A DNA stretch of 64,000 bases from Eubacteriales bacterium (GTDB taxonomy: Bacteria; Bacillota; Clostridia; Oscillospirales; CAG-382), in contig JAZRGS010000075.1 of the NCBI GenBank assembly GCA_045644305.1, positions 465 to 64,464 of the forward strand, given 5' to 3'. Within the stretch, counting starts at the first letter, position 1. The number at the start of each line of letters is the position of its first letter. Shown here piece after piece: positions 60,291 to 63,890 of the stretch. The notes beneath the pieces are model-generated. The model had not been told where the DNA came from and did not search any database. It saw nothing but the letters and a program-made list of their open reading frames with translations. A program made the position numbers and the translations under genes.

Positions 60291-63200
60291 TCAACCAAGC
60301 TTTTCCTTCATTTTGTTGATCATGGACACATAATCGGAGGGTTCGGGAGTTGCTTCGATTACCTGTCTGATCTTGCGAAGGATGATTTCGAGAACGGGGT
60401 TGTCCTTCTTTTCGAATCCGCCGCGAAGCTTAGGATACTTATCGTATTTTTCCATAAGAAGGTTATACTGCTGTTCAAGGATCTTACAAAGAACGAACTT
60501 AACGTCGTCCTTGTCTTCCCACATAAGAAGCTCGTCTTCGAAGGTCTTGATAACAGCATCTACGATAGCGGAGATTTCACCGTTGAAGCGCTTGTTGTTG
60601 GGAAGCGATGCATAGTAGTAAACAGGGATTTCGAAGAGCGAGGAAACTTCGCCTGCGGGAATATCGTTTTCCTTGCAATCGTCGTCAACTCGGCTTTCGC
60701 AGATAAGGAAGCTGTCGAGCGACTTCTTGAATTCGGTTTCCTCGTAGCATGCGTGGTGCATACGGTCCTTGTAGTTCTTCTTTGCCTTGATAACGTCGAT
60801 ATCAGAGACAATGAAGGGGCTGATGTACATCGAGTCTACCAATTCATAGAATTCGTCGCAAGGTGTGTTGTTCGAAACCGAAAGGGTTACGTACTGCTCG
60901 TCGGAATTCTGATACTTATAAACCATTCTGTCGTCAGCAACAAGAGAAAGCTTGCAGCGACGGAGCGCCTTATAAATAAGACCGTAGATCATAGCCTGAT
61001 GGATTCTGAGCATTTCGCGTTCCTGATGACCGAAGTCGAGCTCAGGCATTCTGGAAATGTTATCCCAGCGCTTGTCGATGTGGGTAGAGATCTTTGCACC
61101 CTTGGTGGTGTCGGGACCGATATCTCTTGCATAGCTTACGTATGCGTTGTAGTAGAGACCGCCCTTTCTCTTGGTGGTTTCGGTGATCTGAGGAGCGGCA
61201 AACTTGTTGAGCTTGTCGGGAGTGAGGTTATAAAGAGCGTTGAAGAAGCGAAGCTCGTACTTCGAGATGCTGTCGACCGCGTTACCCTTGGGCATGAGGT
61301 CCTTAACTCTGTAAGTACGCATTTCGGTGAGCGCTCTGTTATATGCAACAAGTGCGATTTCGCGAGATTCAACGTTACGCATACGCTGAACCGAGGGAGC
61401 CGCAAGGCGTGCACCCATCGCGATAACTTCCTTGATGTGTCTTTCGTAATCTTCGTTGCTGAGCTTATCGAATACCTTTTCGGTCTTGCCCTCGATACCG
61501 TTCATCATTTCGTTTTCTTCGCGGGTCTTACGACGAGCGGAGAGACGCTTTTCAAGCGCGATAGCTTCGATGATGTTTACGTCGAGAGAAGCGCACTTGC
61601 GGCGAACGTCCTTCTTGAAGTAGCCAACGAGAACGTCGTCGAAAATGTCGATACGCTTATCCTCTTCAACAACATCAAGAGCAGCCATTTCGCGTTCGAA
61701 TTCAACGTTCTGCTTCATTGCGTCGAAGATTTCAGCGTTTGCTTCGGAATCGAGAAGAGTGCCTTCCTTGCTCTGGCTCTTGGTGGAAAGGCTTGCTTCA
61801 TCGAGAAGGTCCTTGGATGCGCAAACGTTGAATACCGAGTCACCCTTACGGAACGAAAGGATATCTACAAGATCGTCCTTCTTCTTGGTGAGGGCTTCAA
61901 CCTTTTCCTTGAAGGTTGCATAGAATCTTTCGAATGCTTCGCAAAGATCCTTAACGTAATCGTAACCGATTCTGTAGGTTGCGAGCTTTGCTTCGGCTTC
62001 ACCGTACTTGGTGATACCTGCATAATATTTGGGGAAGTAATCGTTGAGCTGGTCATAAACCTGCCATGCACCCTTCATCTTTTCCTTGAAGGAGGGTTCT
62101 GCGAGAGCAACTTCACAAAGTGCATCGAGGTTTCCTTCCTGCTCCTTAGTGTACTTAGCGTCGAACTTTTCGGGGTTATCCTGCTTGCTGGAGAAGATAT
62201 CAAGTGCCTTCTTGGCCGAGTCGCGGATAGCAGAAGTTTCGTTCAACTTCTTATCGAACGCGGTCTGGAGAGAGTAAAGAATGTAACGCATTGCGTTAGG
62301 ATGGCAAACCTCACCATAGGTGTTCTTCATAAGAGCCTCGAGGGTGTGCTTATCCTGTTCCTTAGCGTTGATGGTCTTGGTTTCGTTACGGAAGATAGCT
62401 TCTGCAACGCCTTCTGCGATCTTATACGCCTTTTCACCCATAATTCTTTCGTAATTACGGAGCTTGCCAAGGTCGCCGGAAGCGTTACCGCACTTATCGG
62501 GGTTGCTTCTGTAATCGATCTTATTTCTGAGAAGGTTTGCGCCGGTCATCGCGTTGCGAACCTCGTTATTGTTGCGGAGTTCCTTAAGAACCTCTGCTTC
62601 GAGTGCTGCGATGTATGCATTGATACGGCTCTTTGCGCCGTTGAGGTACTTGTCGCGAAGATCCTTCGAGAAGTTATCCTTAGAGGAATCGAGCTTTTCG
62701 ACGTAAACCTCGGGGAGCTTGGGAAGGTCTGCAAGAGAGAGACCCTTCTTGCGTGCTTCCTGCTGAAGTACGTAGAATGCCTTGTCGTATCTCGACCACT
62801 TTGCAGCTTCGCCTTCGCCGCCGATGCTTTCGATAGCCCAGTCGTATGCAACGTAGTCTGCAATGTCTTCGTACGGATAGCGGATGGTAGCCGCGCCGAT
62901 AGCACCGAAACGGTTACGGCCGTAGTTACCGGGGTTGGACATTTCCTTGATGATGTTATCTTCAACCGAGAAAGCATTCTTCTGCATAGGACCGATGTTC
63001 TGTTCGTAAAGCGCCTGTGCAGCCTGCTTCTTATACTGTTCGATACTTACAAGGGTGGTATCCTCGGCGTCCTGACCATCCATAAGGAAGCAGAAGCCGA
63101 AGGGGAGGATGCCCAAGGACTTCTTGTCCTCGGTGCCGGGGATCGGGAAATCGATGTGAAGGTTGCCGTAGCGCTTGAGGTCGCTTTCAACGTCAAGGAA

Positions 63201-63890
63201 GCCCGAGCCCTTCATCATAAATGCGTTGATTTCCTTAATGGTAGCGTAAGCGTTTCTTCTCTGAGAATCGCGTTCTACCGAAGAGTCGATAACGCTGTCG
63301 AGAGTTTCGGGGAGAAGAATGAGCGAACGAACGATAAGGCTGGTGTTGGGATATTTGTTCTGAACGTGGTCACGAACGAACATTGCCAAAGGAAGAGCAA
63401 TACCCGAACCGGTACCACCCGAAGAGGTGGAAACGATAACGATACGCAACGCCTGCTTCAATTCTCTGCCGTCCTTGCGGAAGAGGTCGTCGATAGCGTC
63501 GTAAAGGGGCTTGATCTTGCCCGTCTTAATAGTAGAGTTAAGTGCAAGACGCGAAATAGCGCGAACCTGACCTGCGCCCTCGGAAACGGTCTTATCGTAA
63601 ATAACCGCATTCTTGGGAAACCAGTTCTTCAATGCGTCTTCGTCGTAAGAGAGATAGTCGCCGACGGTCTGGGTATTAGAGGTCTGAACGTAGTAAATCT
63701 TCGCTTTACTCTTAGCGATGCCGGAAAGGTCGTTTACGTTGGTGTCCAAGCAGACGAAACTGATGTTTTGAGTTTCGCCGGGACGGCACATTTCTGCGAC
63801 GCGCTTGATGATGTCGCAACCGGTACCGCCGACACCGATAAACAGTGTAGGTGCTTCAACTTGGTTGTTTTTAACGTTTTCTTTTGCCAT
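60291..63890 (-). CDS. FtsZ/tubulin-superfamily (Tubulin_2-like) protein with ~850-aa C-terminal extension (gene A)
   Basis: 1199 aa with a GGAGA RBS. Motifs: T1 loop GVGGTGCD (aa 19-26, nt 63813-63836), T3-like EGAGQ (aa 104-108), and tubulin signature SGGTGSG (aa 157-163, nt 63402-63422). The remainder is K/E-rich, probably helical, and unassigned. Confidence 0.75.
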   Translation of the reverse strand: MAKENVKNNQVEAPTLFIGVGGTGCDIIKRVAEMCRPGETQNISFVCLDTNVNDLSGIAKSKAKIYYVQTSNTQTVGDYLSYDEDALKNWFPKNAVIYDKTVSEGAGQVRAISRLALNSTIKTGKIKPLYDAIDDLFRKDGRELKQALRIVIVSTSSGGTGSGIALPLAMFVRDHVQNKYPNTSLIVRSLILLPETLDSVIDSSVERDSQRRNAYATIKEINAFMMKGSGFLDVESDLKRYGNLHIDFPIPGTEDKKSLGILPFGFCFLMDGQDAEDTTLVSIEQYKKQAAQALYEQNIGPMQKNAFSVEDNIIKEMSNPGNYGRNRFGAIGAATIRYPYEDIADYVAYDWAIESIGGEGEAAKWSRYDKAFYVLQQEARKKGLSLADLPKLPEVYVEKLDSSKDNFSKDLRDKYLNGAKSRINAYIAALEAEVLKELRNNNEVRNAMTGANLLRNKIDYRSNPDKCGNASGDLGKLRNYERIMGEKAYKIAEGVAEAIFRNETKTINAKEQDKHTLEALMKNTYGEVCHPNAMRYILYSLQTAFDKKLNETSAIRDSAKKALDIFSSKQDNPEKFDAKYTKEQEGNLDALCEVALAEPSFKEKMKGAWQVYDQLNDYFPKYYAGITKYGEAEAKLATYRIGYDYVKDLCEAFERFYATFKEKVEALTKKKDDLVDILSFRKGDSVFNVCASKDLLDEASLSTKSQSKEGTLLDSEANAEIFDAMKQNVEFEREMAALDVVEEDKRIDIFDDVLVGYFKKDVRRKCASLDVNIIEAIALEKRLSARRKTREENEMMNGIEGKTEKVFDKLSNEDYERHIKEVIAMGARLAAPSVQRMRNVESREIALVAYNRALTEMRTYRVKDLMPKGNAVDSISKYELRFFNALYNLTPDKLNKFAAPQITETTKRKGGLYYNAYVSYARDIGPDTTKGAKISTHIDKRWDNISRMPELDFGHQEREMLRIHQAMIYGLIYKALRRCKLSLVADDRMVYKYQNSDEQYVTLSVSNNTPCDEFYELVDSMYISPFIVSDIDVIKAKKNYKDRMHHACYEETEFKKSLDSFLICESRVDDDCKENDIPAGEVSSLFEIPVYYYASLPNNKRFNGEISAIVDAVIKTFEDELLMWEDKDDVKFVLCKILEQQYNLLMEKYDKYPKLRGGFEKKDNPVLEIILRKIRQVIEATPEPSDYVSMINKMKEKLG

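Follow-up and report, generated by a model that had tools for sequence, protein, structure and literature searches.

An FtsZl1-family tubulin-like protein with a predicted helical extension, encoded in a conserved four-gene operon of gut Clostridia

Introduction

The tubulin/FtsZ superfamily contains a divergent branch that Makarova and Koonin named FtsZ-like 1 (FtsZl1) in 2010, on the basis of HHpred comparisons (Biol Direct 5:33; PMC2875224). These proteins carry the T1 and T4 motifs, and neither the T6-H7/T7 region nor a C-terminal domain could be identified in them: helix H5 was the last element that could be aligned reliably, the remainder bore no resemblance to known C-terminal domains, and the chain was described as continuing in a long coiled-coil and α-helical part (PMC2875224). 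Here we describe gene A, an FtsZl1 gene on the minus strand at 60291-63890 of a 64,000-nucleotide stretch of DNA from a Eubacteriales bacterium (contig JAZRGS010000075.1; the whole stretch is called the window below), together with the operon to which it belongs.

Whether FtsZl1 proteins form filaments was raised by a reviewer of the 2010 paper and debated there. The authors offered three options, namely that the corresponding elements have diverged too far to be recognised, that novel filaments form via the C-terminal structures, or that no filaments form at all, and they proposed a role in membrane remodelling (PMC2875224). A review in 2011 again gave the function as unknown, and a phylogeny published in 2023 placed the Tubulin_2 proteins as a divergent outgroup lacking FtsZ_C or Tubulin_C. 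In a related context, Kaur, Burroughs, Iyer and Aravind described firmicute GAP1-N2 systems with tubulin, coiled-coil and vWA genes (eLife 2020, 9:e52696); such DO-GTPase conflict systems with tubulin occur in Firmicutes and Actinobacteria. The question of whether a tubulin-fold GTPase without canonical T7 loop and C-terminal domain can assemble and hydrolyse GTP, and of what the vWA-FtsZl1 module does, is more than 15 years old.

Gene A as a member of the FtsZl1 family

The explanation that we favour overall, with a probability of about 0.7, is that gene A is an FtsZl1 member that stands second in a conserved operon of four genes, acting through the kind of mechanism that we propose further below. 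The features on which the comparison is built are the following, all on the minus strand.

60291-63890, minus strand: gene A, 1199 residues, an FtsZl1/Tubulin_2 family protein
62832-63845, minus strand: tubulin-like GTPase domain, residues 16-353, from the PF13809 match, the AlphaFold2 (AF2) model and Foldseek
63813-63836, minus strand: T1 loop GVGGTGCD, residues 19-26, a motif whose glycines are invariant in the family
63567-63581, minus strand: T3-like motif EGAGQ, residues 104-108, with a family-specific insert of about 35 residues ahead of it
63402-63422, minus strand: T4 signature SGGTGSG, residues 157-163, a motif in which G158-G-T-G-[SA]-G163 is at least 99% conserved
62940-62984, minus strand: putative H7-like helix, residues 303-317, a predicted helix with S308-x-E310-D311-N312
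62856-62939, minus strand: candidate T7-equivalent, residues 318-345, a loop plus acidic helix start (GRNRFG ... YPYEDIAD) picked out by conservation
60294-62831, minus strand: extension, residues 354-1199 (846 residues), mostly helical in the full-length AF2 model

Within the tubulin/FtsZ superfamily, gene A belongs at orthologue level to the FtsZl1 branch, which is Tubulin_2 in Pfam. The model that Pfam assigns to the 'FtsZ-like' proteins of Makarova and Koonin, PF13809, covers residues 16-353 with E=1.2e-54. The match scores 186 bits, where the cut-off is 27, and runs from profile position 1 to 352 out of 356; the motif pattern lies far beyond chance. By comparison, PF00091 (Tubulin) reaches 26.1 bits against a gathering cut-off of 33, its match ending at profile position 141 of 190, and in Pfam neither PF12327 (FtsZ_C) nor PF03953 (Tubulin_C) matches the protein at E<=0.1. 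A search with the N-terminal domain returned 1729 clusters (50% identity) at E<=1e-3, most listed members being about 1050-1250 residues long. Full-length relatives of about 1180 residues and 55-100% identity abound in gut Clostridia metagenomes. The NCBI annotation pipeline PGAP labels relatives 'tubulin-like doman-containing protein'. The best match in a reference genome, 97% identical, comes from the metagenome-assembled genome RGIG6318 from sheep rectum.

The closest link to the literature is the orthologue of Pseudoflavonifractor capillosus ATCC 29799 (locus L075), which is 59% identical to gene A over residues 1-1198. By coordinates and sequence this protein is BACCAP_04123, listed as FtsZl1 in the supplement of the 2010 paper, where the adjacent genes of P. 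('Bacteroides') capillosus are BACCAP_04124 (vWA, 861 residues), BACCAP_04123 (FtsZl1, 1183 residues), BACCAP_04122 ('B5', 658 residues) and BACCAP_04121 ('B12', 1435 residues) (PMC2875224). Gene A shares with it the N-terminal domain with T1, T4 and inserts, the unalignable T6-H7/T7 and C-terminal domain, a helical extension of about 800 residues and the order of vWA, FtsZl1, B5 and B12 in the operon. Nothing of substance sets the two apart, gene A being the orthologue from an uncultured ruminant-gut Clostridia genome. It also fits the general FtsZl1 architecture of an FtsZ-like domain, a helical or coiled-coil part and an α-helical C-terminus in about 1000-1250 residues. FtsZl2 of Proteobacteria, the other family of the 2010 paper, likewise has a divergent FtsZ-like GTPase domain and a non-FtsZ C-terminal region; it differs in keeping T6, H7 and T7 and in having neither the long helical extension nor a conserved operon, and gene A matches FtsZl1.

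Missing T7, missing C-terminal domain and an extension of about 850 residues are consequently family traits known since 2010 and no peculiarities of gene A. The initial annotation, made from the DNA alone, had singled out these features and concluded that a GTP-binding domain without the activating half implies either non-canonical polymerisation or activation in trans, perhaps by B or C. Since the 2010 paper and its reviewers had already covered both the finding and its interpretation, this amounts to a rediscovery; the first of the two implications is the same consequence, non-canonical filaments or none, that was debated then, and it is not specific to gene A. As a discovery there is little new, as the family, the missing T7 and C-terminal domain, the extension and the exact operon were all published in 2010, and Pfam and NCBI already label such proteins as tubulin-like. 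What the present comparison adds is practical: the GTPase domain is modelled with confidence, and there is evidence that a vWA protein and FtsZl1 form the core pair.

The GTPase domain

The T1, T3-like and T4 motifs lie where the initial annotation had placed them, at residues 19-26, 104-108 and 157-163. Their spacing, which it had called FtsZ-like, is so in order only. In Escherichia coli FtsZ the three motifs occupy residues 17-24, 67-71 and 105-111, and the distance from T1 to T3 is 50 residues, against 85 in gene A. As published for the family, gene A carries specific inserts before T3 (about 35 residues) and after T4; between H5 and S6 the insert is about 45 residues long.

Two AF2 models were built, one of the full-length protein from 83 close homologues and one of residues 1-420 from 66 diverse sequences; conservation figures for the N-terminal domain refer to 113 diverse family members. 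The full-length model reaches a mean predicted local distance difference test score (pLDDT) of 78.7, and Foldseek matches it first to TubZ, γ-tubulin and FtsZ. For the model of residues 1-420 the pLDDT is 87.4 and the predicted template modelling score 0.81, and Foldseek returned 311 matches in the Protein Data Bank (PDB) at E<=1e-3. FtsZ, CetZ, TubZ and tubulin head the list, with a probability of 1.0 and E values from 2.5e-6 upwards. A tubulin-type GTP-binding domain, as first proposed from the motifs, is thus supported by the predicted structure. Template modelling scores (TM-scores) normalised to the target are 0.41-0.52 for FtsZ cores of about 300 residues, values that would fit a superposition of the GTPase domain alone.

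These results also bear on the idea that the motifs belong to a Rossmann-type fold of another kind and resemble tubulin only superficially. A single short-chain dehydrogenase does appear at Foldseek rank 24, and PF00091 stays below its gathering cut-off, as given above. Against this, the 23 higher-ranked and nearly all of the 50 listed matches are FtsZ, CetZ, TubZ or tubulin at probability 1.0, the full-length model finds members of the superfamily first, the T1, T2, T3 and T4 signatures are invariant family-wide, and the HHpred assignment has been published (PMC2875224). We reject this explanation on the Foldseek results and regard its probability as close to negligible.

The predicted elements of the N-terminal domain follow the superfamily order: S1 (15-20), S2 (43-49), S3 (66-69) and then the insert, H3 (110-138), S4 (148-155), H4 (160-179), S5 (185-192), H5 (204-229), a hairpin (246-259), S6 (266-270), helices at 283-298 and 303-317, a loop at 318-339 and afterwards helices only. 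The published FtsZl1 alignment ends at H5 (RRNAYATIKEINAF). Conservation runs through the whole nucleotide-binding part: the T1 glycines G19, G21, G22 and G24 are invariant, and D49-T50-[DN]51 in T2, E104-G-A-G-Q108 in T3, G158-G163 in T4, P194-[DE]195 in T5, N213, Y215 and E220 in H5, D271 and N274 after S6 and, beyond the GTPase domain, W365 and D369 are conserved in the family. From this we infer that the nucleotide-binding half of gene A is complete. Sequence and profile searches of the PDB with gene A gave no significant match to tubulin or FtsZ, and the extension matched designed helical repeats only. With FtsZ, TubZ, CetZ and tubulin gene A shares the GTPase fold, T1-T5 and probably also T6 plus half of H7, the first; it differs from them in lacking the N-x-D-x-x-D/E T7 motif and contiguous strands S7-S10, and in having the 846-residue added domain.

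The activating half

The T7 motif N-x-D-x-x-[DE], reported missing at the outset, is indeed absent from residues 1-450 in a strict pattern scan, and the model of residues 1-420 places helices only in residues 340-416, with no contiguous four-strand C-terminal domain after the GTPase domain. What needs correction is the statement that there is no activating half at all, as conserved candidate elements exist inside gene A. Helix 303-317 carries S308 (96%), E310 (94%), D311 (98%) and N312 (99%), and its AFSVEDNII resembles AFGAANDVL of FtsZ H7; it may be a shortened and diverged H7. In the following loop, R327 (86%), [YF]328 (100%), G332 (96%), Y338 (97%) and P339 (100%) are conserved, and 81 of 113 members have at least two basic residues within 323-327. 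At the start of the next helix stands Y340-E-D-I-A-D345, a degenerate acidic motif that escapes the strict pattern: residue 341 or 342 is acidic in 99/113 members and residue 345 in 62/113, the shares per position being 58% (341), 63% (342) and 55% (345).

These elements could be read as a conventional cytomotive polymer whose T7 is cryptic and still works. In that case residues 303-317 would be H7 and 318-340 the T7 loop, and H8 would begin at Y340-E-D-I-A-D345 (compare N207-V-D-F-A-D212 of FtsZ), so that the acidic residues would activate hydrolysis in the next head-to-tail subunit, with a C-terminal domain that might be split. The mapping is drawn from predicted secondary structure and motif likeness, and the helix-loop-helix order after S6 as well as the frequent acidic residue at 341 or 342 suit it. 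The authors of the 2010 paper argued, moreover, that all characterised members of the superfamily polymerise (PMC2875224), and Foldseek alignments extend over some 290-390 columns of FtsZ and TubZ cores of about 300-400 residues. On the other side, no single acidic position is invariant (55-63%), the invariant loop residues are basic or aromatic (R327, Y338, P339), the target-normalised TM-scores stay low, and support at the sequence level was not found with Pfam, PDB profile searches or hhalign. Taken together, a cryptic T7 of this kind seems rather unlikely.

The full-length model offers a further clue. Here residues 328-337 form a confident strand followed by a helix at 340-356, and far downstream a strand at 843-851, a helix at 852-865 and strands at 869-872 and 879-889 copy the FtsZ order S8-H10-S9-S10, an order that would also suit the cryptic T7. 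The strand at 328-337 is missing from the model of residues 1-420, a discrepancy that is ambiguous as the two models rest on different alignments. If taken at face value, the C-terminal tubulin half might be split into S7-H9 (328-356) and S8-H10-S9-S10 (843-889) around a helical excursion of about 485 residues; the T7 position would be held by the basic and aromatic loop G-R-N-R-[FY] ... Y-P together with the acidic helix start, and the polymer would use a different activation chemistry and be nucleated at the membrane by the vWA receptor. Short family members, sought to test whether the 843-889 segment belongs to the core, appear to be fragments. We consider this split arrangement decidedly improbable.

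Residues suited to mutagenesis follow from the conservation: S308/E310/D311/N312, R325/R327, E341/D342/D345, D369 and, in the extension, H937/D939/W942.

The C-terminal extension

The tail that the initial annotation described as roughly 850 K/E-rich residues is 846 residues long, and its length therefore stands; its composition was overstated, as the enrichment is mild (19.9% K+E in residues 354-1199 vs 11.9% in the N-terminal domain) and the region is predicted with confidence to be structured and mostly helical. In the full-length model it consists of long helices with small β segments at 843-889 and 976-1002. Invariant islands occur at HPNAxRY (530-536), A776/E780, G911/Y917 and [ST]-P-H-I-D-K-x-W (935-942), and S-x-E-D-N and P-H-I-D-K-x-W stand 551-681 residues apart in those full-length representatives in which the two motifs occur together (at most 90 of 125). 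Model and conservation indicate that the extension is a conserved helical domain and not a low-complexity K/E tail. Profile searches found no homologue of it in the PDB. A canonical coiled coil, as in the published description of the family, is not supported by a crude, home-made and unvalidated heptad scan, which gave no signal in gene A above shuffled sequence.

The operon and its core pair

Gene A is flanked by three further genes on the same strand, here called Z, B and C.

63941-64000, minus strand: 3' end of gene Z, last 19 codons and stop, the rest lying beyond the window edge
58226-60235, minus strand: gene B, about 660-669 residues, 'B5' family of Makarova and Koonin
53494-58233, minus strand: gene C, 1579 residues, 'B12' family

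The peptide KSPQNGPSVTFDCKVCTEK, followed by the stop at the window edge, is identical to the end of the 859-residue gene upstream of A on contig L005, and through this match Z is a membrane protein with an extracytoplasmic vWA domain. Its homologues have an N-terminal hydrophobic segment, retain the metal ion-dependent adhesion site residues D-x-S-x-S, T and D, and continue after the vWA domain with a variable Ig-like middle region, a C-terminal transmembrane segment and a cytoplasmic tail; VWA_2 matches at E=1.5e-3 to 6.6e-5, under the Pfam cut-off. Gene B combines an N-terminal domain of about 440 residues, for which Pfam gave no match even at E<=10, with a two-transmembrane hairpin (residues 464-516, window 58688-58846) that has weak sub-threshold matches to DUF4231, SLATT and holin-like families, confined to the hairpin. 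Gene C, whose first 8 nucleotides are shared with the end of B, begins with four transmembrane segments (residues 4-201), followed by a large domain and an acidic/basic low-complexity linker, and ends with a zinc ribbon, its CxxC...CxxC invariant, and a zincin-like domain with HExxH (residues 1366-1493, window 53755-54138). The DUF6782 putative metallopeptidase is seen in 4/6 of its homologues, with a best E of 9e-5 that is under the Pfam cut-off, and profile searches of C against the PDB gave no match.

Within the linker of protein C, an exactly duplicated 13-residue acidic motif, LPFDVSDIDDEEL, occurs at residues 1146-1158 and 1175-1187 (window 54760-54798 and 54673-54711, minus strand). The copies are flanked by basic amphipathic motifs of the GFFxxxGRFFKK type (residues about 1045-1125 and about 1225-1235), which may be membrane- or partner-binding peptides.

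The gene order was surveyed in the 80 best genome loci (L011-L090; 39-97% identity of A), those with enough flank being evaluable. Z stands upstream of A on the same strand in 64/64 loci, B downstream in 71/71 and C in 65/65, and metagenome loci down to 33% identity of A keep the same order. In Bacillus sp. N5-665, the locus consists of a vWA gene and an FtsZl1 (Tubulin_2) gene only, and most published FtsZl1 operons contain a vWA-domain (COG2304) protein, partners other than B and C being found in such operons (PMC2875224). Because the Bacillus locus holds nothing but this pair, Z and A are the core module, to which this clade adds B and C. Among cultured bacteria, the operon is carried by Pseudoflavonifractor capillosus ATCC 29799 and P. 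intestinihominis CLA-AP-H29.

As a separate observation, Z diverges fastest of the four proteins: where A is about 60% identical between L011-L090 and the window, the figure drops to about 37% for Z, compared with about 42% for B and about 51% for C. Large indels concentrate in the Ig-like ectodomain of Z, as expected for an exposed receptor.

The survey bears on the suggestion that A has no activating element of its own and that B or C supplies the activator in trans. In this clade, every evaluable locus with A also encodes B and C, the overlap of their genes suggests coupled expression, and A lacks the canonical T7, all of which would be expected if one of them activated A. Yet both are missing from the Bacillus pair and replaced elsewhere, and the T7-less N-terminal domain with its extension is conserved family-wide; as the T7-less domain occurs without them, B and C are unlikely to be general activators. 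Nor does Pfam show a GAP-like or GTPase-related domain in either, and conserved candidates for activation are found inside A itself (R325/R327, E341/D342, D369, D939). The suggestion is thus unsupported, and we hold activation by B or C to be very unlikely.

Proposed mechanism and role

With gene A read as an FtsZl1 member in its four-gene operon, the mechanism would be as follows. A would bind GTP and self-associate at the membrane via a non-canonical interface, formed by the post-H7 loop (GRNR[FY] ... YP-Y-E-D) and the helical extension. Its assembly would be coupled to the vWA receptor Z, a coupling that we propose because no other partner is common to all evaluable genome loci of this clade, the Bacillus pair and the majority of FtsZl1 operons in the literature. 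B and C could act as clade-specific membrane outputs, possibly through membrane permeabilisation and proteolysis. This mechanism as a whole, from GTP binding and membrane self-association to the coupling to Z and the outputs of B and C, is tentative, and we put it at somewhat less than even odds.

Regarding the role, we lean slightly towards a conflict or stress-response system over the membrane remodelling proposed in 2010. This lean draws on the tubulin-vWA systems of Kaur et al., the fast divergence of Z, nearby TIR genes, the SLATT/holin-like hairpin of B and the zincin-like domain of C. With the GAP1-N2 conflict systems the operon shares a tubulin protein with a long helical C-terminus, a transmembrane protein with an extracellular vWA domain, membrane-proximal components and a two-transmembrane SLATT-type module as possible effector. 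It differs from them in having one tubulin and one vWA gene in all loci examined, where the firmicute systems have two of each, and in a large zincin-bearing protein with four transmembrane segments. Those systems further include one or two genes for DO-GTPases, which are TRAFAC GTPases that often bear N-terminal zinc ribbons, and a GAP1 protein made up of GAP1-N2, -M and -C domains. No Walker A motif is present in A, B or C, and in Pfam no GTPase family matches Z, B or C. As neither a DO-GTPase nor GAP1 is recognisable, the locus falls outside the definition of the systems of Kaur et al. B may be distantly related to GAP1; in C. kluyveri and C. glutamicum, members of the 'B5' family adjoin genes for GTPases (PMC2875224).

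TIR genes lie near the operon in 10/80 genome loci and also at L001 20003-21652 and L004 18332-20623, and are absent from the window. The association is sporadic and hints at a link to immunity. Where they occur, these genes (TIR_2 with leucine-rich repeats, or TIR alone) adjoin C on its downstream side or Z on its upstream side.

Several points weigh against this picture. For the protein itself, an hhalign comparison of the FtsZl1 N-domain profile with the single E. coli FtsZ sequence has zero confidence beyond T4, leaving the H7/T7 mapping without statistical support; the vWA, SLATT-like and zincin assignments all lie below Pfam curated cut-offs; and the literature searched contained no experiments on any FtsZl1 protein. 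For the lean towards conflict, the strict synteny of the operon looks vertically inherited, Pfam shows no recognisable DO-GTPase or GAP1 in Z, B or C (with relaxed thresholds for B and C), PADLOC-DB v2 has no match for A, B or C at E<=0.1, the neighbours in the window (BacA, FtsK/SpoIIIE, a pyridoxal phosphate enzyme and an S8 protease) are housekeeping genes, and FtsZl1 is scarce on plasmids (5/72,556 records) and phages (1 record).

Mobile elements as the main habitat of the family were considered and rejected on these five plasmid records and one phage record. The sole match of the FtsZl1 N-domain in the phage database, MT836542.1, is a 9.8-kb unannotated 'Bacteriophage sp.' from human faeces (39.7% identity over 90% of the query) and may be a misassigned bacterial fragment and not a phage gene.

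Neighbouring genes and minor observations

A scan of viral contigs with E. coli FtsZ and a tblastn search of FtsZ against the collected loci and the window gave no match, and NCBIfam no informative ones. The FtsZ homologues retrieved with a separate search were exclusively enterobacterial proteins of 99-100% identity. The operon is bounded by unrelated genes. Its convergent neighbour at 47911-53376 on the plus strand encodes an S8 subtilase of 1821 residues with dockerin and cadherin-like domains and a C-terminal transmembrane segment, a large surface protease without relation to the operon.

Antisense to gene A, a stop-free 'shadow' reading frame of 1295 residues runs through window 60105-63992 on the plus strand. 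The 1199 codons of gene A contain no TTA, CTA or TCA and CTG only once; CTA and TCA are also missing from B and C, where TTA is used 3-4 times. Similar pairs of long open reading frames lie elsewhere in the window, at 9532-11982 (plus) with 9544-12243 (minus) and at 30760-33564 (minus) with 30793-33675 (plus). This recurrence on both strands suggests a genome-wide codon bias that is able to mislead gene calling based on open reading frames.

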